Of a DNA stretch of 64,000 nucleotides, positions 6,804-58,354 are shown one piece after another. Location: the NCBI GenBank assembly GCA_030154085.1, contig JASKKR010000001.1, forward strand, positions 4,852-68,851, given 5' to 3'. Within the stretch, counting starts at the first letter, position 1. Each line of letters starts with the position of its first letter. Under the pieces are notes generated by a model. The model saw nothing but the letters and a program-made list of their open reading frames with translations, was not told where the DNA came from and made no database searches. Made by a program: the position numbers and the translations under genes. Source of the stretch: Candidatus Cloacimonadota bacterium (GTDB lineage: Bacteria > Cloacimonadota > Cloacimonadia > Cloacimonadales > Cloacimonadaceae).

Positions 6804-8525
6804 TTATGGGATGATCACTTGCTTAAAGGTTTGAGAGCGTCCATTTTGCCGGATGCGGACAAAGTATATGCCAGCGGGAAATGAAATCGCAGAAGAATCA
6901 TAGGATTTGAGCCCGCGCGCAGAGCTAACAAGCTGCCCCCGTAGGTTGTAAATATCCAGATCAAAAAAGGCTTCACTTTTCAATGAAAAACTCTTATTAC
7001 ATGGATTTGGATAGGGTCGCGGTAATGTGGCTTCGGGAACATCTACGCCCACATGCCCGCTTTCAGCCTCGACTATGATGTCATCCACAAATAGTGCAAA
7101 AGCATCAAGAGATACTGCATTTAACGCCAGATTGACATCTTGATTTGCAAAGCTGCCCAAGTCAAACTCATATTCTGTCCAGCTAGCAGGAATACTTAGC
7201 CATTCTTCCGGATGTAGAGGCGTAAACGAAGTAGGTTGAGCATCACTAACCGAGATTAAAACCCGAAGTCTTTCCAAACCATAGGAAGGAGTATAGCTCC
7301 GAGCCATGAAGCTCAGTTTTGCTTGGCTGCCCAAATGAAGGTTTGGCAGGATCAACCAGTCATTATTCGGAGGATTTAGAGCACTTGCCGACATCAGCAT
7401 TTTCCCCCCGGAAGGTGGTGTTATATCAGTCACAGGAGGTGTTGTGGCAGATGGAGTGAAGACGATCCAGCCCAAAGGATTGCCTTCTTGGGGCCAAGAA
7501 GCAAATTCCCAACCCCAAGTGTCAGAGCCATCCAGATCCAAGATCTGATAGCCAGGAATCTGAGTACTAAAATCGGCATACTCCTCGAAACTCTGGTATA
7601 AGATGAGATCTTGATCGGTTTGTGGCACCGTGATTATCACATTGTTTGAGTGCGCAGAAGACTCTCCTCCAGGATATAGAGCTTGCACGCTATAGTTATA
7701 GCTGCAGCCGGGAGTCACATCGCGATCCACATAACTTTCTGTACTAAGCTCTGCCCAAATAGCACTATCACGGAAAAGACGGTATCCGCTTGGCTGATTT
7801 TCTGCAGGAGCTTCCCAAAATAGTCTGATCGCTCCATCTGTGTAATATCCGTGCAGATTTTGTGGAGCTGTCAGATCATTGGAAGAGTTCATATTCAGCC
7901 TGACATTACTGATATAAGTCTTTGTGACCGCATTCACTGGCGGATCATCGGGATCTGGATTGATGGACATACTGATAAAGTTTAAGGTGCGAGTGTTTGT
8001 CATCTGAGTGCAGAAAAAGTCATCGCTCGTCATACCTTGTCCATCGGTATTTTCATCTACAGCTATAATGAGATTGCTCACACCATCATAGCTAAAGCTT
8101 TGGTCAAGCGGAATCGTGAGCCACCCACTGCCCGGAAGACCAGAGGCAAAATATTCTGGACTCAAAAGACCACTAAAGACCTGGTTAAGTTCAGTTGTGG
8201 GTATCCATTCTGAAAGCTGAGAAAGATCACTATGTCCCAGATAGATACTCCATTCCTTATTCCCTTGTAAAAAACTCTCACTCGCCACATTATATTGAAA
8301 CCCAATCTGGGAGATCTCGCCGGCTTGCCCAATTTCTGAGGAGTAAAGAAGCTGTTGCGAATAGCTAAAGCGCGCGACAGGCTCAATAGGAAGCCCTTGA
8401 TGTAAGACATTGCCGGTTCCGATGGTTATTATGTTTGCTGATAGATGCAGAGTACATAGCAAAACCAAGAGGAGTCCCACTTTGTGGACAATTTGATCAA
8501 AAGACGCATATAGCCTTTGCTTCAT
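6804..8525 (-). CDS. Secreted surface protein with choice-of-anchor-J-like domain and T9SS-type C-terminal sorting domain
   Basis: I prefer the ATG at 8525 (GGAGGA 4 nt upstream) over the TTG at 8558. Signal peptide LLLVLLCTLHLSA. Module PPNNDWLILP...SYTPSYGLERL...DAFALFVDD. C-terminal YPNP...IYNLRGQLV...GIYFVRI matches the CTD of the three other cargo proteins here. The stop abuts the helicase start. Confidence 0.7.
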   Translation of the reverse strand: MKQRLYASFDQIVHKVGLLLVLLCTLHLSANIITIGTGNVLHQGLPIEPVARFSYSQQLLYSSEIGQAGEISQIGFQYNVASESFLQGNKEWSIYLGHSDLSQLSEWIPTTELNQVFSGLLSPEYFASGLPGSGWLTIPLDQSFSYDGVSNLIIAVDENTDGQGMTSDDFFCTQMTNTRTLNFISMSINPDPDDPPVNAVTKTYISNVRLNMNSSNDLTAPQNLHGYYTDGAIRLFWEAPAENQPSGYRLFRDSAIWAELSTESYVDRDVTPGCSYNYSVQALYPGGESSAHSNNVIITVPQTDQDLILYQSFEEYADFSTQIPGYQILDLDGSDTWGWEFASWPQEGNPLGWIVFTPSATTPPVTDITPPSGGKMLMSASALNPPNNDWLILPNLHLGSQAKLSFMARSYTPSYGLERLRVLISVSDAQPTSFTPLHPEEWLSIPASWTEYEFDLGSFANQDVNLALNAVSLDAFALFVDDIIVEAESGHVGVDVPEATLPRPYPNPCNKSFSLKSEAFFDLDIYNLRGQLVSSARGLKSYDSSAISFPAGIYFVRIRQNGRSQTFKQVIIP

Positions 8526-8803
8526 CCGTTCCTCCGTACAATCCCGCGCAATTTTCAATTTTCTGCAAACTGCCTTAATAGAGTAATACTGTCAAGCTAA
8601 AAGCAGCATTAAATTTCCAATGTATAGCTTGCAGTTATGATTCATTTGGCTATGAATCTCAATAGAAACCAGTTGGTTGGGCTGTTCACCAGATTGTTTG
8701 TGATCAAACGATGTTATAGGACAAACCCTATCGCGATGGCAAGACAGCCTTCCCAAAGGCTAATGCCGACATTTCAGATCGCTTTTAATATCTGCTTCAG
8801 GAT

Positions 8804-8910
8804 GCACTTCACATCGCTGTAACTCCTTATTTTCCCGTTTCTTGCTCACTTCTCAAATGAGGGACAAACGGGGGAGGCATCAAGAGCCCTACTTTTGCAA
8901 GCATTTAACC
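8804..8910 (-). repeat. Copy 1 of a ~105-nt structured intergenic repeat
   Basis: Contains the invariant 22-mer TTTGAGAAGTGAGCAAGAAACG, read on the minus strand. Stem is CCCGTTTG / GAAACGGG. Aligns end to end with the copies at 21741, 41687 and 54685. Confidence 0.85.
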
Positions 8911-9119: not shown

Positions 9120-10496
9120 ATGTCAGATAAGAAAATCGGTTTGATCCGTCGTACCTATCGCAGCTCCATCAGAGAGGGGATATTTGCACAGATTTATGGC
9201 AATCTGGCAGCAATAGGGAGTTCGTTTGTCACCAAACTTATGGTGATCTTGGGGGCGACTCCACTCCAATATAGCATGCTCTCTGCTTTAGGGCAAATCT
9301 CCGCTCTGTGGCAGCCATTGGGAGTAGCATTTTCCCACAGAATCTCTGAACGGAAGTGGATATGTATCTGGATCACATTTGTGGGACGCTTTCTGACACT
9401 ATTCTTGGGTGTGGCACTCTTATTCCCAGACCAGCAAGATGGTATCTGGTTTATGCTGGTGTTACTCTTTTTTAGTGCAGGATTCCAAGCAACAGGAGCA
9501 AATATCTGGATTGCCTGGATCAGCGAGCTAATCCCCCTCAAGATCCGCGGCAGATTCTTTTCTCGGCGAAATCAGATTCTACTCGCGGTGGGATTGCTAT
9601 TTAGTTATGCGCTCAGCTATTTAGTAGATCTCTTTGAGAAAGGAGCAAGTCCATTCCAAATCAGGTCTCTACAAAAGTTCTTTATCCCACAAAATCAAAC
9701 TCTGTTTTTGGCATTTGTATATGTCTTTGCCTCCATCATCGGGATCATCGGGCTATCATTTTTAGCGCTTCAGCCTGAGCCCAAGAGGGAGCGTAGTCAT
9801 GAACAAAGCCTGCGGAAGGTCTTCTTGGAACCATTAAAAGACAAGAATTTTCGGCTACTCTTGGTCTTTGGTTCCTGGTGGATGATGTCGGTTGGTATTG
9901 GCAGCCCGTTTTGGACTCCGTTTATGCTGAAAAACTTGCAGATGAGCCTATTTGAAGTGCAGCTATACAACACTCTGCATATAGGCTCTTCGCTTTTGGC
10001 ATTTAGTTTTTGGGGAAAGTTCATCGACCGCTATGGCAACAAAACATCCATGAAGATCTGTGTATTTTTAGGGGGATTAAATCCGCTTTTTTGGCTATTT
10101 ATGACCTCTTCAAATTACAACATTCTCTGGGTGGAAGCTATATCTTCCGGCTTTATGTGGGCAGGTACGGGGGTAATTAGCACAAACTTTGTGCTTAGCA
10201 TAGCGCCACGCCGCAAAGAACAGTCATATAGCGGGATATATGCAGCGTTTACAGGCATCTTTATGATGAGTTCCTCCCTTGCCAGTGGCATCTTCTACCC
10301 AGCAAGTATGGATCTGGGCAGTCTACATCTGGCTCCGGAACAAGTGATTTTTGGTATCGGCGCCGTGATGCGATGGTTGGGAATCATCCCTCTGGGACTA
10401 GTTCGGGAATACCGCAGCGTTCCTCTCCGCAAGGCGTTAGCTTATAGCATGAGCCGAATAATTGGATGGCGTCCCAGAATGGGTAAGCGCAGTTAG
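9120..10496 (+). CDS. MFS-type transporter
   Basis: 458 aa with about 12 hydrophobic helices in two halves separated by a charged loop (PEPKRERSHEQSLRK), the typical MFS layout. Substrate unknown. Confidence 0.6.
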   Translation: MSDKKIGLIRRTYRSSIREGIFAQIYGNLAAIGSSFVTKLMVILGATPLQYSMLSALGQISALWQPLGVAFSHRISERKWICIWITFVGRFLTLFLGVALLFPDQQDGIWFMLVLLFFSAGFQATGANIWIAWISELIPLKIRGRFFSRRNQILLAVGLLFSYALSYLVDLFEKGASPFQIRSLQKFFIPQNQTLFLAFVYVFASIIGIIGLSFLALQPEPKRERSHEQSLRKVFLEPLKDKNFRLLLVFGSWWMMSVGIGSPFWTPFMLKNLQMSLFEVQLYNTLHIGSSLLAFSFWGKFIDRYGNKTSMKICVFLGGLNPLFWLFMTSSNYNILWVEAISSGFMWAGTGVISTNFVLSIAPRRKEQSYSGIYAAFTGIFMMSSSLASGIFYPASMDLGSLHLAPEQVIFGIGAVMRWLGIIPLGLVREYRSVPLRKALAYSMSRIIGWRPRMGKRS

Positions 10497-21545: not shown

Positions 21546-21740
21546 TTTGTCTCCATTTATCTTTTTATTTGTTTTCATATCAGTATAATGGCAATGTCCA
21601 TGACGCTGGATTTGTGTCAAATCTTTTCTGCACTTTCCTTGTCTCCCTTAGCCATATTATGCCAGATACTTTCACCAAAACTGCCAAATTTCCCATTCTT
21701 GACACTCAGATTTTGGAATTCTCTTGATGTTTTGATGCTT

Positions 21741-21845
21741 CTAACTTTCGATTTTGCAGCACACTTCACGCCTCCCTCGTTTCACCCCCATTTGAGAAGT
21801 GAGCAAGAAACGAGAAAATAAGGAGTTACAGCTTTGTGAAGTACG
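21741..21845 (+). repeat. Copy 2 of the ~105-nt structured intergenic repeat
   Basis: Carries the invariant 22-mer on the plus strand. Stem is CTCGTTTC / GAAACGAG. The outer helix ACTTCAC / GTGAAGT is intact. Confidence 0.85.
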
Positions 21846-21968
21846 TTCCACAATAGTAAAACCTGAGCTAAAGCAGCAATCTTCTTTAGTATTTAAAATG
21901 CCCTCTGTATGGAGGGCATATCCTTCTATTTCAGAAGAATGAGCAGGTAGTGCTGATATCAATATAAG

Positions 21969-24039: not shown

Positions 24040-24100
24040 AATTAGCTTGTAGGATGGCGTATCCATCAAGCTTTCTTCTTGCTTGCCAGTCTGATAAATC

Positions 24101-38895: not shown

Positions 38896-41469
38896 TTAGC
38901 TAAATCTGAAAATAACTTTGCCTTGTTCCTTATCGTAATCTGAAAATATGTGTTTTTTATCTGGAGTATCGGTGTCCAGCAAAGCCCTTGCAAGCTCGTT
39001 TTCTACGATGTTTTGGATAGCTCTTTTCAGGGGCCGAGCACCAAATTGTGGATCATATCCCACATCTGCAATATGTTCGATCAACTCTTCCGAAAACTCG
39101 ATCTCTATTTCTTTCTTTTCCAAACGCTTAGATAATAAGGAAAGCTGCAGCTCGACTATTCGCCGGATCTGGTCACGATCCAGCCGGTGAAAGATGATAA
39201 TGTCATCCAGGCGATTGAGAAACTCCGGACGAAAATACTGCTGCAAAATTTGCATTAATTGTGGGCGTAATTCGTTCAGATCACCTTGATGGGCAAATAT
39301 TTCCTGACTGCCTATATTGGATGTGAGGATGATGACGCTATGCCTAAAATCCACCGTCCGCCCCTTTCCATCGGTCAATCTACCATCATCCAATATCTGT
39401 AATAGCAGATTAAATACATCAGTATGAGCCTTCTCAATCTCATCAAAGAGGATTACGCTGTATGGCCTTCTGCGTACTGCTTCTGTGAGATATCCGCCCT
39501 CTTCATAGCCCACATAACCTGGAGGAGCGCCAATGAGTCGCGCCACTGAATGACGTTCCATAAACTCGCTCATATCCAAGCGCAAAAGCGCTTTTTCGGT
39601 GTCGAATAGATAGCTCGCCAAGCTCTTAGCAAGCTCAGTTTTACCCACACCTGTGGGGCCCAAAAAGATGAACGAACCTATCGGGCGATTTTCGTCCGAT
39701 AGACCACTACGGCTTCGCCGAATCGCATTCGCCAAAGCAATAATACCCTCTTTTTGTCCCACAACTCTTTGGGCAAGCACATCCTCCAGATTGAGGAGTT
39801 TCTTCATCTCACTGGCAGCCAGCTTTGAAACCGGAATGCCAGTCCATTTGGAGACTACTTCTGCCACCAGTTCTTCATCAACTTGTTCTTTTAAAAGGGC
39901 GTCCCTTTCGTGTTTCTTTTTCTCTCGTAGTTGATTGAGCTCTTTTTCCTTACTGGCCAAACTGCCATATCGGATCTGAGCTGTTTTTTCATAGTCACCC
40001 TCGCGCTCTGCTTTTTCTGCTTCAGATTTTAGACGGTCGATGTCTTCTTTTAATGCGCGAATCTTTTCGATCTCCGCTTTTTCGTGTTCCCACTGCATCC
40101 TGAGGCGATTGCGATCTTCGTTCAGAATTGCAATTTCTTCGTTAATCTTTTGTAACCGGCTCTTGGAAAGCTCATCTGTTTCCTTGGCAAGAGAGAGTTT
40201 TTCGATCTCCAATTGCCTTATCCGACGCTCAATCTCATCAAGCTCCTGAGGCATCGAATCAATCTCCAGACGCAAACGCGAACAAGCCTCATCAATCAAA
40301 TCTATCGCCTTATCCGGCAAAAACCTATCTGAAATATATCTATCCGAAAGAGTCACCGCTGCGACTATGGCATTATCAGTTATCTGCACTCCATGATGTA
40401 CCTCATATTTTTCTTTAATGCCACGCAAAATTGATATACTATCTTCCAAAGAAGGTTCTGAGATCATGATTGGTTGGAATCTGCGCTCCAATGCGGGATC
40501 CTTCTCGATATATTTGCGATATTCATCAATAGTGGTGGCTCCGATGCAGTGCAATGTGCCCCGCGCAAGCGCTGGTTTGAGCATGTTGGAAGCATCCACT
40601 GAGCCTTCCGCTGCCCCTGCCCCTACCACGGTGTGAATCTCATCTATAAAGAGAATGATCTTACCATTCGACTTTTCGACTTCCGATAATACTGCTTTAA
40701 GCCGCTCCTCAAACTCTCCACGAAATTTTGCCCCAGCTACCAAAGACGCCATATCCAGCTCTAAAAGTTCCTTATCCAGTAGATTTTCCGGCACATCGCG
40801 ATCCACAATGCGTTTTGCCATCCCTTCCGCAATCGCTGTCTTACCAACTCCCGGGTCTCCGATAAGAATAGGATTGTTTTTGCGGCGCCGTGAGAGTATC
40901 TGCATCGTCCGACGAATCTCTTCATCTCTGCCGATTACCGGATCCAACTTTTCAGTGCGCGCCAACCTGGTGAGATTGCGTGCATACTTCTCCAATGCCT
41001 GATATTTCGCTTCGGGATTCTGATCCGTCACCCGCTGATTTCCCCTAACCTCTTTGAGGGCTTCCATAAGCTTATTTGACGTCATCCCCAAAGATTTTAA
41101 AATCTGCGCAGCTTCTCCTTTGCCCTGGAGCATACCCAAAAGAATGTGCTCTCCACTGATATAATCGTCTCCCAGACGGTCTGCCTCTTTCTCAGCTGTA
41201 TGCAATATATCCAACACTTCTTGGGAGAGATATACCTGCCCTCCCTGAACTCGTGGTATTTTTTGTAACGCATTGCGCAATTTTGTGTCCAACTCAGAAT
41301 TGGAAATCTCCAGCTTTGCTAAAATCGGATGAATAAGCGATTCCGGTTGATCCAACATCGCCCTCAATAGATGTAGATCCTTAATCTCTTGATGACCATT
41401 TTCCGTTGCCAAAGCCTGCATGGCGTTGAGCAGTTCTTGACTTTTTATAGTTAATCGTTGCGCATTCAT
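38896..41469 (-). CDS. clpB: Chaperone disaggregase ClpB
   Basis: 857 aa with two AAA+ modules (GDPGVGKT and GPTGVGKTE Walker A) and a long middle coiled-coil typical of ClpB. Confidence 0.97.
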
Positions 41470-41523: not shown

Positions 41524-41686
41524 GTATTTTTAGCAAACACACCCCCTTGTCTGCTAATTTTACTGCGATCTAATTATCGCAACCGAAACCGCGCTGCCAA
41601 TCAAAGATGAATTCAACCAGACCGGTGCTAAGGATAATCTTTTGGGGAGCAGCATAATGTAAAATCATCATCAAACTATCCCTAAA

Positions 41687-41793
41687 CGCACTTCACAAAG
41701 CTGTAACTCCTTATTTTCCCGTTTCTTGCTCACTTCTCAAAGGGGAGAGAAACGGGGGAGGCGTCAAGTGTGCTACTTTTTCAAGCAATTAAC
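41687..41793 (-). repeat. Copy 3 of the ~105-nt structured intergenic repeat
   Basis: Carries the invariant 22-mer on the minus strand. Stem is CCCGTTTC / GAAACGGG. It lies between the divergent clpB and rubrerythrin-like promoters. Confidence 0.85.
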
Positions 41794-42038
41794 TATTTAT
41801 TTTTGCTCTCTATCTGACTATAATGGAGGAGAAAAGTTGCGCATCTCTAAAGAAGATTTATGGTTTTTATCATCTTCTGCAAAGCATCTCTACCTACTAA
41901 AGATTCTGCACACAGACTCTCTTCCGACAGTTTAAGTTTGGGATACTTGGTCAGAGGTCGATACTGTATCTGCAGACCAAGGCTATCACAGAAAGTTATA
42001 TCAGGTATTAATTTAAGGATGGGAACAGCAAATTTAAG

Positions 42039-42105: not shown

Positions 42106-42594
42106 ATGGCTGCCTATTCAGTAAACGAAGTAGTAGAATTTGCCGTACAGATTGAGAGAAACGGTTACGCTTTTTATCATGAGGCAAGCAAGCGTAAGGA
42201 CATTGATCCCAAGGCCAAAGAATTTATCGAGTTTTTGCGAGATGAAGAGCTAAAGCACGAGAAGATTTTTTTGTCATTGCGTGATGACAAGGAGCTGCAG
42301 AATTTGGAGCTTACTCAGGATTGGGAATTGGTCGCAGAATATCTGAAGACCATCGTTGATTCCAGAATTTTCAATACTGAAGATGCTGCCATCAAAAAAG
42401 CTGCTGGTGCCAAAGATTTGATGGAGGTTTTAGAATTTGCCATCTCTTTTGAGAAAGACACCCTCTTGTATTTTCATTCTCTGAATGACAACTTCGGATC
42501 TTCCAAGACCCGAGATGTCTTGCGCAAGATCATCAATGAAGAAGTTTCCCACGTTTTGAGACTGAATGACTACAAAAAGACGCTAAAGGCATAA
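42106..42594 (+). CDS. Rubrerythrin/ferritin-like diiron protein (no rubredoxin domain)
   Basis: Four-helix-bundle pattern with two E-x-x-H motifs (EELKHE, EEVSHV) and partner glutamates (VQIERNGYAFY, ISFEKDTLLYF). Confidence 0.6.
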   Translation: MAAYSVNEVVEFAVQIERNGYAFYHEASKRKDIDPKAKEFIEFLRDEELKHEKIFLSLRDDKELQNLELTQDWELVAEYLKTIVDSRIFNTEDAAIKKAAGAKDLMEVLEFAISFEKDTLLYFHSLNDNFGSSKTRDVLRKIINEEVSHVLRLNDYKKTLKA

Positions 42595-51967: not shown

Positions 51968-54637
51968 ATGAAGATAAGATTTAATTTACTATTGGTAATA
52001 TTTCTGTCGATTTTGTTCTGGCAAATCGGCGGAATACTCAGTGCTCAAATACCTGTTACAAATGTAATAGATCTCTGGAGAGTGAGACATAATCTCTCCA
52101 AATCATACATACAGACAGCTGATATTGATCTGGATATATATGCCCCAGCATTTGTATCCGGGCAATACTATAATCCTGGGGACTATGTGACTCATACGGA
52201 TGGGTACATCTATTACTGCAATAGTTTCACAAATGAAATGCCCGCAAATAATACAAGCTGGTCCCAGCTTTGGGAAGCGGATAAGGGCTGGAAACCGATT
52301 GGCACTGAAACCAGTCCTTTTACAGGAATCTATGACGGTGGTGGTTTCTCGATCAAGAATCTTTATATTAATCGCGGAGCAAACCCGACTGGGAACGATA
52401 GTGTCCCCTCTGGTGGGGAAAACAACATCGGACTTTTCGGTTATGTGACGAATGGCTCTTCTACTAATGCCGAGATCAAAAACCTTGGCATCCAAAACCC
52501 CAGGGTAGTTGGCAAACAAGCAACTGGTGCCTTAGTCGGCAAAGCTCAGTCTATTAAAAAAAATATTACTATAGTTATCAGCAACTGTTTCGTGCATGGT
52601 GACATGGATTCATATGTCAGAGGTTTTGGTTACACCGGTGGTCTTGTTGGAGCAGCCTCCAGCAATCATGCCATACATGGTCCAATCGAGATCAACTATA
52701 GCTGGGTGGACATAAATGTTTCATCCACGCATCCATCCAACACAACTGATTACAATATCCGTTATGGCGGATTAGTCGGTTACATATTCAAGGGTGTTGC
52801 CTACGACTGTTTTGCCTACAACAACGTGATCGGTGGAGACCAAGTTGGTGGCATCGTAGGTTATTTGGATAACGCTGCAGTCGCTCGGTGTTATTTCAGC
52901 GGATCTGTCACGCAGAATGTCGTTACTTCAAATCCTGGGATAGGAGCAATTGTTGGAAATTATGAAGGAAATTTCCCAAACAACATAGTTGGCAGTACAG
53001 GGAACAACTGCGCTCCATACTGCTATTATCCGAACAATAATCCCCCAGTCATCAATGCTGTTGACAGTCAAATCCCAAATGAACAAGGCACAGGAATAGA
53101 TTTTACTAATCAAGATAACTTTGAAACTTGGGATTTTTTTGATATTTGGAGCATTACCGATGGTCTGCCCATCCTGGACAGCAATCCCATCCAAGAACTT
53201 CCCGATTATTACTATTACACAATTGCAGATGGATCTTGGAATGATACTATATGGTATAAGACCACTAACCCAAACTTTGCGGGAGGCTTTTCCAGTTCGT
53301 CCGAACCAGATCCTGACAAAAGTCTAGGCATTCGGATTGTGAATCAGGTCTGGCTAAACCAAAATATTGAACTAACTAATTTGCAGATTGGGGCTTCCGG
53401 AATCCTCGAGTTAAACGAAAGCATAACTTTGACACTTATAAATGGCTCCAGTGATAAAGATCTTATAGTTGAAAAGAGTGGAAAGCTTCTTATTCACGGA
53501 AGCTTGATTCTGGGTAACAGTGCCGCCATGGAAGTCTGCGAAAAAGCTAAAGTATCCATTGATGAACAAACTGGTGGGATCGTACCTGGACAGAATACCA
53601 ATCTCATCGTCAATAGCGAAGATTTTGATTTTCAAAACGTGGGTGTAGATGGCTTTGAATCTCCAAACTATGCCTTTATCTGCTTCCCTCCCACTAATCG
53701 CTTGTTGAATCCCTTCTTTGCTTCCAGTACATTTATAGAGGCTTTTCCATTATTTGTCAACCGCAAATGGTTAATAAACGGTACAGCATTGCAAGCAGAC
53801 ACTTCCAAACGTATTACTTTGTTTTGGAATGCCGCAGATGACAATTATTACGATTGGATAGCAAACAATGCACATCCAGTAGTATATTTCGGAATGACCC
53901 CGGTAAGCATTATAGACTATGATGTGCAATCTAATCCCAGATGGGTGAAATTTGATTGGGTATTTGATGAGGGAACAGGTGATGCCAAAGCCGAATTGCA
54001 AGTTAAGCCATTCTCAGGGGAGACTCTCCCGGTGGAGCTTTCGGCGTTTAATGCACAATCCTATCAGGGGCGATCAGTCAAACTGATGTGGCAGACCCAA
54101 TCCGAGACCAATGTGCAAAGTTTCAGTTTCTATCGCGGTAGGACTGATATCCTTGAAGACGCCCATTATCTCAATGTAACCATCCCCGGGACAAATAGTT
54201 CTCAGCCCAAAAGCTACATATATTATGATCGTGAGGTCTTTGATCCTGGGCTCTATTATTATTGGCTTTTGAGCACCGATTTTGACGGGACGAGCCAGCT
54301 ATTTGGTCCGATTAATGTGTATTTTGATGCTACAGATTTGGGTTCAGATCAGGTGACACCGCTACCTGGTTTTGACAGTGCTTATCCGAACCCCTTCAAT
54401 CCTGAGACAACCCTGCGCTATGGAGTGGACCAAAGATCTACAGTAGAGCTACGGATCTACAATGTGCGTGGGCAGATAGTGCGTCGTCTCATTCAGACTG
54501 AGCAAGATGTCGGTTGGCATCAGATTCGCTGGGATGGTCGAGATGATGCCGGTCGCAATCTCAGCAGCGGAGTTTACTTTGCCCGTATGCATCTTGGGAA
54601 TCGGATCTATCAGCACAAACTCGTGATGATGAAATAA
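51968..54637 (+). CDS. Secreted protein with GLUG-type repeats and T9SS-type C-terminal sorting domain
   Basis: Signal peptide LLLVIFLSILFWQIGGILSA. Repeated GGLVG-type motifs (GALVGKA, TGGLVGAA, YGGLVGYI, VGGIVGYL, GAIVGNY). CTD is YPNPFNPETTLRY...IYNVRGQIV...GVYFARM...LVMMK. Confidence 0.6.
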   Translation: MKIRFNLLLVIFLSILFWQIGGILSAQIPVTNVIDLWRVRHNLSKSYIQTADIDLDIYAPAFVSGQYYNPGDYVTHTDGYIYYCNSFTNEMPANNTSWSQLWEADKGWKPIGTETSPFTGIYDGGGFSIKNLYINRGANPTGNDSVPSGGENNIGLFGYVTNGSSTNAEIKNLGIQNPRVVGKQATGALVGKAQSIKKNITIVISNCFVHGDMDSYVRGFGYTGGLVGAASSNHAIHGPIEINYSWVDINVSSTHPSNTTDYNIRYGGLVGYIFKGVAYDCFAYNNVIGGDQVGGIVGYLDNAAVARCYFSGSVTQNVVTSNPGIGAIVGNYEGNFPNNIVGSTGNNCAPYCYYPNNNPPVINAVDSQIPNEQGTGIDFTNQDNFETWDFFDIWSITDGLPILDSNPIQELPDYYYYTIADGSWNDTIWYKTTNPNFAGGFSSSSEPDPDKSLGIRIVNQVWLNQNIELTNLQIGASGILELNESITLTLINGSSDKDLIVEKSGKLLIHGSLILGNSAAMEVCEKAKVSIDEQTGGIVPGQNTNLIVNSEDFDFQNVGVDGFESPNYAFICFPPTNRLLNPFFASSTFIEAFPLFVNRKWLINGTALQADTSKRITLFWNAADDNYYDWIANNAHPVVYFGMTPVSIIDYDVQSNPRWVKFDWVFDEGTGDAKAELQVKPFSGETLPVELSAFNAQSYQGRSVKLMWQTQSETNVQSFSFYRGRTDILEDAHYLNVTIPGTNSSQPKSYIYYDREVFDPGLYYYWLLSTDFDGTSQLFGPINVYFDATDLGSDQVTPLPGFDSAYPNPFNPETTLRYGVDQRSTVELRIYNVRGQIVRRLIQTEQDVGWHQIRWDGRDDAGRNLSSGVYFARMHLGNRIYQHKLVMMK

Positions 54638-54684: not shown

Positions 54685-54791
54685 GCTAAGTGCTTGAAAA
54701 AGTAGTGCACTTCATGCCTCCCTCGTTTCTCCCCCATTTGAGAAGTGAGCAAGAAACGAGAAACAAAGGACTTACAGCTTTGTGAAGTGCG
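54685..54791 (+). repeat. Copy 4 of the ~105-nt structured intergenic repeat
   Basis: Carries the invariant 22-mer on the plus strand. Stem is CTCGTTTC / GAAACGAG. The outer helix GCACTTCA / TGAAGTGC is followed by GTTTTTT. Confidence 0.85.
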
Positions 54792-55143
54792 TTTTTTAGG
54801 GTAACCCCCATCTATCATGATCCATGCGGGAATCATATGCTCGAAATCCGTGGAAGTGGAAAAGTGGGCGAAAAGTAATGGTAAAGCCTAAGTCTGGCAT
54901 ATCCTTGAACCTGTGTAGGAACACGAAATTCACTCAAGCCGGTCTACCGAATTTATTCATTTTTTCTGCAAATCGCTCCATACAGTTCATCTCATCCATC
55001 GTAAATCGTGCATTGTAAAATGAATGGTTTATGTACAAAGTTCTTGACGTAGTGTAAAGTGTAATATGCCTTGTCTTATATAGATTACATTGCTGTTTCA
55101 TCTTTGTAATCCATATACTCTAAAGAATTAGGAGTAAAATGCC

Positions 55144-58115: not shown

Positions 58116-58190
58116 TGGCTCCGGAAGAGGGATTCGAACCCCCGACCTAGTGGTTAACAGCCACCCGCTCTACCGCTGAGCTATTCCGGA
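58116..58190 (-). tRNA. tRNA-Asn (anticodon GTT), CCA encoded
   Basis: Folded by hand as a cloverleaf: acceptor TCCGGAA/TTCCGGA, D arm GCTC-AGCGGTA-GAGC, anticodon arm GGTGG-CTGTTAA-CCACT, T arm GGGGG-TTCGAAT-CCCTC, discriminator G plus CCA. A T-run follows. Confidence 0.95.
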
Positions 58191-58354
58191 ACACATTGAT
58201 TTTAACAAAATCCTAAAACATATGTTTTTTGTCAATAAGTTTTTTTTATCGGGCGTCTCAATCATCTATCAGACGGCGTATCCTATTGCAAATAGAAAAG
58301 CTCATGTTTAACCGTCTCGCCTTGCTATGAGCTCAATCTAGGTGGCTCTTTATA

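Follow-up and report, generated by a model that had tools for sequence, protein, structure and literature searches.

Small bacterial genomes rarely contain intergenic repeats in high copy number, and the persistence of REPINs has been tied to a dedicated single-copy transposase. One such system, REP/REPIN together with RAYT, is found in Enterobacteria, Pseudomonas and Neisseria, where hundreds of copies may be present in one genome. A REP is an imperfect palindrome of 20-40 nt with a conserved 5' GTAG, a REPIN consists of two inverted REPs, and the system includes RAYT, a Y1 HUH transposase of family PF01797 whose gene is usually flanked by REPs. Compact intergenic elements of other kinds include Correia/NEMIS of Neisseria, RUP and the ERIC-type MITEs, which measure about 100-150 nt, occur in about 100 copies or more, form long hairpins, can carry promoter-like boxes and possess clear terminal inverted repeats, a TA or other target duplication and a likeness to IS ends. 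The PATEs of the IS200/IS605 group are centred on a hairpin, have neither inverted termini nor target duplications, carry a short conserved sequence at one edge only, rely on a trans-acting Y1 TnpA, often with TnpB, and show a strand bias with replication. Finally, integron attC sites (e.g. the Vibrio cholerae repeats) are species-uniform imperfect palindromes of about 60-130 nt that are recognized by the fold of the single strand and not by its sequence, one strand being the functional one, and that form co-oriented tandem cassette arrays next to intI. It has been reported that REPIN populations decay without their RAYT (bioRxiv 10.1101/2021.07.10.451892). Our literature search found no paper linking Cloacimonadota with repeats of such types.

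The repeat described here was met in a 64,000-nt stretch of DNA (hereafter the window, C1:4852-68851) from a Candidatus Cloacimonadota bacterium whose genome comprises 1.95 Mb in 42 contigs with 43% G+C. A sequence-only reading of the window had pointed to four copies of an intergenic element; all four were found there, and their MAFFT alignment shows one conserved unit, the extents of which were refined against a 111-nt consensus, CTAAATGCTTGCAAAAGTAGGGCACTTGATGCCTCCCCCGTTTCTCGCCCATTTGAGAAGTGAGCAAGAAACGGGAAAATAAGGAGTTACAGCTTTGTGAAGTGCGTTCTG, written on the strand designated as the core strand in that reading (Table 1). The 22-mer TTTGAGAAGTGAGCAAGAAACG, claimed to be an invariant core, is indeed identical in four of four window copies, and the two stem variants occur as described, with CTCGTTTC/GAAACGAG in copies 2 and 4 and CCCGTTT(G/C)/GAAACGGG in copies 1 and 3. 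Folded as RNA, the four copies give modest z-scores, from -1.3 to -3.4. The GC-rich hairpin that precedes copy 4, with its TTT, follows the stop codon of an 889-aa T9SS-cargo gene (51968-54637, +).

Table 1. Positions of the repeat copies in the window and of a second, lower-copy repeat of the same genome (window numbering unless a contig is named).
Feature	Position	Strand	Context or remark
Copy 1, whole 111-nt unit	8798-8908	-	Extent from consensus alignment; divergent gap, flanking genes T9SS cargo (6804-8558, -) and MFS transporter (9120-10496, +)
Copy 1, central hairpin CCCGTTTG...GAAACGGG	8834-8872	-	Contains the invariant 22-mer at 8836-8857
Copy 2	21741-21850	+	5'-block variant CTAACTTTCGATTTTGCAG; between two minus-strand genes, beta-eliminating lyase and M29 peptidase
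Copy 3	41682-41792	-	Between clpB (38896-41469, -) and a rubrerythrin gene (42106-42594, +)
Copy 3, central hairpin	41718-41756	-	Invariant 22-mer at 41720-41741
Copy 4	54686-54796	+	Begins directly 3' of a GC-rich hairpin and TTT
Piece A, fragment of a different, lower-copy repeat	41898-41946 (C1:46749-46797)		Not part of the element
Lower-copy repeat, examples	C33:48164-48341; C8:41100-41267; C35:121535-121716; C5:100151-100747

Read on the core strand, the unit is composed of four parts. Its 5' block, (C/G)TAA(A/G)TGCTTGCAAAA...ATGCC, is conserved and is followed by an imperfect hairpin of about 18 bp; next come a 3' block that is A-rich and likewise conserved, GAAAATAAGGA(G/C)TTA, and an exchangeable tail. 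The number of four copies, which is right for the window, understated the size of the family, since genome-wide counts range from 109 to 120: nhmmer returned 119 matches, 109 with scores of at least 50 bits, and a covariance-model search 120, so that the resemblance among the four window copies is not due to chance. Comparison of the genome with itself indicated that this is its dominant repeat, accounting for 112 of 161 repeated segments. Its copies recur at intervals of about 17 kb, on nearly all contigs and in both orientations, with at least ten of them at contig ends, and all are intergenic by crude gene calls. Convergent gaps hold 31 copies (129 such gaps genome-wide, 24%), divergent gaps 22 (130 gaps, 17%) and co-directional gaps 41 (1208 gaps, 3%). 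Neither GC skew (p = 0.34) nor the gene-strand majority (p = 0.85) is associated with the orientation of the repeat, i.e. no replication-strand bias was detected, and within co-directional gaps 22 copies have the same orientation as the flanking genes versus 19 the opposite one. This random orientation, together with the lack of an Rfam match, leads us to reject a riboswitch or other 5' leader, in agreement with the initial view that the element is not a dedicated 5'-UTR riboswitch. It had also been stated that the element belongs to no recognized RNA family, and this view stands, as the sole Rfam match in the window is a tRNA and the best matches of the element itself have E-values of at least 0.38, far below gathering scores. 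A general link to intrinsic terminators was considered and rejected as well: a few copies start right after a terminator-like hairpin, and a genome-wide scan located inward terminators in only 13 of 218 repeat flanks.

The ends of the unit are defined by information content, which climbs sharply at the left (C/G)TAA and fades to the right of GTGAAGTGCGTT, the left edge falling outside the inverted part. Terminal inverted repeats are absent, because the ends read CTAAATGC... and ...GCGTTCTG and are complementary over 5-6 nt at most. Among 66 copies no direct repeat of 2-9 nt stands out at any offset as a target-site duplication, the right edge shows no conserved TA, and the sequence outside the edge of the element revealed no conserved target motif. 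About nine copies are extended by 60-150 nt on the 5' side. In many others the final 15-40 nt of this extension are still faintly recognizable, often as a small edge palindrome, TTAGC-N-GCTAA, as read from the copy rows. A larger parent element was rejected as the origin of this extension, which is modular, has no ORF and is not an IS; one of its parts is a separate repeat that is also met by itself in the genome, and the other part was seen only next to the element. As a separate observation, piece A (Table 1) also adjoins some long-form copies elsewhere in the genome, and the lower-copy repeat family of which the window holds this fragment has about 10-15 copies of 90-190 nt, partly in tandem and often near the main element.

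With regard to the systems outlined above, the element fits the REP/MITE-like class that had been suggested for it, being a multi-copy intergenic unit built around a hairpin. It shares with REPs and REPINs an extragenic location, a high copy number, hairpin formation, vertical inheritance and a within-genome master sequence that differs between species, as well as the lack of terminal inverted repeats and of target duplications. On the other hand, it consists of one hairpin of about 18 bp between non-palindromic blocks instead of a short REP or an inverted pair, and PF01797 is absent from both high-copy genomes, that of the host and that of its sister species G018, these being draft MAGs (42 and about 140 contigs) in which a repeated or hard-to-assemble gene could be missing; the same family is present in 16 of 24 congeners. 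The host 5' block holds GTAG-GGCAC..TGCC, with GTAG next to a small palindrome, at a place where G018 reads TATG. The more specific proposal of an IS200/IS605-type hairpin was not supported, as both the Y1 transposase (PF01797) and TnpB (PF07282) are absent from the host genome and copies show no bias towards a replication strand. Thus, the element resembles PATEs in its central hairpin, its lack of inverted termini and target duplications and its conserved sequence at one edge only, (C/G)TAA, but differs from them in unbiased orientation and in a host lacking both genes. Nor are the copies the ends of a larger IS, since the self-comparison revealed no other long multi-copy segment, and neither an autonomous partner with the same ends nor split left and right halves were found in this draft assembly, where absence is not proof. 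Size, copy number, intergenic position, hairpin and promoter-like boxes recall Correia/NEMIS, RUP and ERIC-type MITEs, whereas none of their terminal inverted repeats, target duplications or IS-end likeness can be recognized in the element. Similarly, its species-uniform imperfect palindrome and a strand-asymmetric hairpin are reminiscent of attC sites, from which it differs in being dispersed in both orientations, and R'/R'' boxes are not evident.

The pairing of the hairpin has been followed at two levels, within the host genome and between species. A T:A to C:G exchange on both arms had been put forward as a compensatory substitution; the exchange is seen in the window copies, yet within the genome it is weak evidence, as the swapped pair is C-G in 46, C-A in 30, T-A in 18 and T-G in 1 of 95 copies, and no other pair varies on both arms. 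An outer CACTTCA/TGAAGTG helix, also proposed, turned out to be poorly kept: no more than 50 of 95 copies have A-T at pair 24:103, and the 3' arm of this helix sits in the tail, which is replaced by unrelated sequence in other copies and in the sister species. Covariation is nevertheless supported, with the strong compensatory changes appearing only between species. In 64 sequences comprising the host and G018 variants the central helix is 89.6% paired and nine pairs change on both sides; pairs 16:52, 18:50, 19:49, 20:48 and 21:47 switch both sides between species, with none broken at positions 18-20. The covariation score is 0.290 versus 0.175 in shuffled alignments (reached by 0 of 500) and does not exceed 0.14 when the partners are slid. 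This covariation counts as few independent events and fits a DNA hairpin equally well.

It had further been assumed that the core strand is the functional one, and this part has to be revised, given that the opposite strand consistently gives the more stable hairpin. For the central part, mean folding energies in the host genome are -22.9 kcal/mol on the opposite strand versus -18.4 on the core strand, the former being better in 83 of 94 copies, and in G018 they are -24.6 versus -20.2 kcal/mol, with the opposite strand better in 29 of 33 copies. The difference arises because C-A mismatches of the core strand are read as G-U on the other strand. As copies share ancestry, this asymmetry represents only two or three independent observations, not 127; an asymmetry of the same G-U type is visible by eye in some copies of a further congener, G021. 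Having one opposite-strand frame free of stops in 56 of 91 ungapped copies, the element might be suspected of encoding a short peptide opposite the core strand. We reject this reading, as a conserved start codon is lacking and variability does not follow a three-base period (the three phases have 12.4, 13.2 and 13.1 variant copies per column), and, in addition, the frame contains stops in 35 of 91 copies and the G018 variant would change most residues.

The core 22-mer itself varies less than the rest of the unit, with 3.1 variant copies per column versus 15.3 elsewhere. It could supply a -35-like TTGAGA followed 16 nt on by GAAAAT, and a promoter scan flagged the combination TTGAGA-16-GAAAAT, with 9 of 12 matches, within copies 1, 2 and 3. 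Each copy might accordingly be an independent small-RNA gene or an outward promoter, a reading with which the free intergenic orientation would be compatible, as expected of self-contained transcription units, and which draws some support from the clear TTGACA -35 of the host's tRNA promoters. Such a role seems to us very unlikely, because shuffled sequence yields 0.6-1.9 such sites per region and the internal site is thus no better than chance, copy 4 does not have it, G018 lacks the -35 (it has CCGGTCGAGCG in that place), no terminator-like site follows, and a promoter needs no invariant spacer. With respect to the tRNA promoters themselves, a clear (C/A)TTGACA -35 and then an A-rich run precede about 25 host tRNA genes (including the one at 58190-58280, -, of the window), followed by a -10 region that conforms only loosely to AAATTT(T/A)AT. 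The clear -35 indicates that the host uses the sigma-70-type -35 and not the -33/-7 pattern of Bacteroidota.

The repeat was also compared with that of G018, the closest relative of the host, whose lyase protein is 90% identical (85% at most in the others). Three partial matches in this genome led to its own variant of the repeat; a query with this variant gave 112 candidates, of which 36 were scored and all 36 matched, and the covariance-model search gave 114 matches. Host and G018 variants are of equal length and align without gaps, and on the opposite strand both read TAA(C/G)TCCTTATTTT, a hairpin and then GGAGGCAT...TTTTGCAAGCA(T/C)TTAG. By our own count on the alignment (A2), identity is about 83% outside the hairpin versus about 38% inside it, where CTTGC is kept in both variants and the stem changes from CCCGTTTC/GAAACGGG in the host to CTCACCG/CGGTGAG in G018.

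Mapping the flanks of G018 loci onto the host genome by tblastx left about 20 testable loci, of which about 15 share their gap with a host copy and about 5 do not. In all 15 shared gaps the orientation agrees, and these include copy 2 of the window, whose counterpart lies upstream of the orthologous lyase gene (L086), and copy 3, with a counterpart in the orthologous gap (L162). Pairwise alignments of shared loci place the elements in register within surrounding intergenic DNA that cannot be aligned, and some pairs have copy-specific flank letters in common (TTTCGTAAGTGC in L033/C41 and ACGGCTTT in L076/C31). The shared sites hold top-scoring copies of the current type in the host genome (107-138 bits), and a copy is more similar to the others of its own genome than to its positional counterpart in the sister species. 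It follows that the sites were inherited and the sequence replaced. A single G018-type copy survives in the host at C41:800-888, in a gap that maps to the flanks of G018 loci L074 and L078, and hybrid host copies combine a G018-like loop start, CGTGCAAG, with the host stem; these copies are read as traces of an evolving master sequence. Many G018 copies are also adjoined by tandem heptanucleotide repeats (AGTTCTT/AGTTCGT, CATAACT, GTTTTAG), located just 3' of the element at L078, L080, L084, L088, L096 and others, and such repeats are likewise seen in the intergenic DNA of other congeners, as upstream of the lyase gene in G017 and G014.

Beyond these two species the element is scarce. In G021, 25 weaker model matches were obtained (34-49 bits for the eight listed), and in the G021 variant, which has not kept the other block, TAACTCGTTATTT and a CCCGT.../...ACGGG hairpin are still present. 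No covariance-model match was found in 18 of 24 congeners, and among 208 genomes of the phylum outside the genus there was a single marginal one (E = 7e-4, in G103). BLAST with a window copy found almost nothing elsewhere. Among 185,579 species the core 22-mer occurs in one other genome record, JARRCD010000058.1 (G023:C16), which is nearly identical to host C38:7225, flanks included; it was not found in viral contigs, and its single metagenome match was dismissed as a chance match within an unrelated, apparently coding sequence. Single stray copies in other bins (G023:C16, G019:C238 and G006:C120, the latter two of the G018 type) are suspected to be mis-binned contigs and not resident copies.

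Five congeners (G011, G012, G014, G016 and G022) carry an unrelated palindromic repeat, with 27 to 64 BLAST matches per genome, the number of copies being smaller than that of matches since many copies match on both strands. It reads ...GACTCGAG-TTGACTCAGAACCTCAAGTCA-CTCGAGTC..., for example at L199 of G014 (G014:C37:1556-1675), and it occupies both of the gaps examined, one preceding the lyase gene and one preceding proS, in which the host and G018 have the element. Some gaps are thus preferred by repeats of this kind irrespective of sequence. This finding bears on an alternative to inheritance, namely that each species' variant was inserted in parallel, in a site- and orientation-specific manner, beside a conserved target. 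Preferred landing or survival sites of this kind would fit it, and so would the G021 matches, seven of eight of which lie in gaps with a host copy, yet with mixed orientation (four the same, three different). We regard parallel insertion as improbable, considering that 15 of 15 G018 pairs agree in orientation although orientation to genes is random, that no conserved target motif exists beyond the element edge while orthologous pairs share copy-specific flank letters, and that no empty target site was found (one locus occupied only in G018 was compared, and its flanks could not be aligned).

Other features in or near these two gaps are reported here in their own right. At about 21560-21620 (-) of the window, inside the 5' end of the 483-aa lyase ORF, AAAAGATTTGACACAAA is conserved in about 17 of 23 congeners and looks like the promoter of the lyase gene; such a promoter-like sequence within the ORF indicates that the true start of the lyase is probably downstream of the listed TTG. 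The motif GGAAA(A/T)ATCTC(A/C)ACA lies about 200 nt upstream of proS (C2:~24050-24070), before a conserved TTGACAGAA promoter, and recurs at the same place in about 15 congeners (loci L170-L189), where it may be a leader or an operator. In G021 (L179), about 250-650 nt upstream of proS, there is a perfect palindrome of about 70 nt nested in a larger inverted repeat with arms of about 40 nt, of a sequence unrelated to the element.

It is also conceivable that the repeat is not selfish DNA and serves its host as a cis element, either as a binding site for a host protein (a nucleoid, topoisomerase or RNA-binding factor, for instance) or as a signal for RNA processing or stability at operon borders. 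Its stem would then have co-evolved with a partner specific to the species. The conservation between species of the blocks outside the hairpin amid intergenic DNA that cannot be aligned, the compensatory stem changes, the preference for one strand in both the host (G000) and G018, the enrichment of copies at operon borders, the retention of sites since the species split and the absence of a transposase all speak for such a function. However, 18 of 24 congeners lack the element, and in some of these the same gaps are occupied by a palindromic repeat of unrelated sequence, so that no conserved host need is evident, and random orientation to flanking transcription is hard to reconcile with a role in mRNA that involves one strand. 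Moreover, selection acting separately at about 100 sites cannot account for a change of five base pairs at each of them, and homogenization would still be needed. We therefore hold a host function to be possible but doubtful.

The interpretation that we favour, as somewhat probable, is that of a lineage-restricted, REP/REPIN-like, non-autonomous palindromic repeat with a constrained hairpin and constrained flanking blocks, which undergoes concerted evolution by gene conversion or through an enzyme acting in trans. Because neutral intergenic DNA can no longer be aligned between the two species, the conserved blocks and the restored pairing must, we infer, be under constraint in both lineages; and since positional counterparts differ by a species-wide variant, homogenization within each genome is required. 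In such a scheme, the hairpin, in single-stranded DNA or RNA of the opposite strand, would be recognized together with its flanking blocks by a trans-acting factor, and copies would be kept alike either by ectopic gene conversion or by an enzyme that overwrites old copies with the current master. This homogenizing process, or else selection, would also explain the near-invariant 22-mer. Gene conversion or an overwriting activity is thus deduced from its outcome, and neighbouring copies are not significantly more similar than distant ones (0.805 vs 0.795, p = 0.11), i.e. there is no trace of local conversion. The absence of a transposase (Y1/RAYT, TnpB), given the reported decay of REPINs that lack their RAYT, and of any observed insertion polymorphism, empty site or target duplication counts against this favoured interpretation. 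A bolder version, which we put forward tentatively and think rather unlikely, is that about 115 copies at fixed sites are rewritten to a changing master without a recognizable transposase, with the strand-specific hairpin as recognition element; candidate processes would be ectopic gene conversion with a strong bias, or template-directed overwriting in which a DNA or RNA master would drive a homing-like conversion.

Determining how such a population is maintained is relevant in several respects. A genome of 1.95 Mb has given about 120 intergenic sites to one repeat, and no transposase gene of the kind to which the persistence of REPINs is tied was found in it. The sister species offers a direct view of the evolution of a repeat population, with sites inherited and the stem replaced in step genome-wide, its pairing being restored every time, and it makes this pair a natural case for asking how dispersed short repeats homogenize and what reads the hairpin. 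From a practical perspective, the family breaks assemblies, with copies at ten or more contig ends, it may explain single stray matches in other bins as suspected mis-binned contigs, and the covariance model identifies the populations of both species in metagenomes. If the rewriting of fixed copies to a changing master is true, the element would be either a vertically inherited intragenomic replicator that is independent of RAYT or a cis element spread over the whole genome and co-evolving with a binding factor specific to each species.
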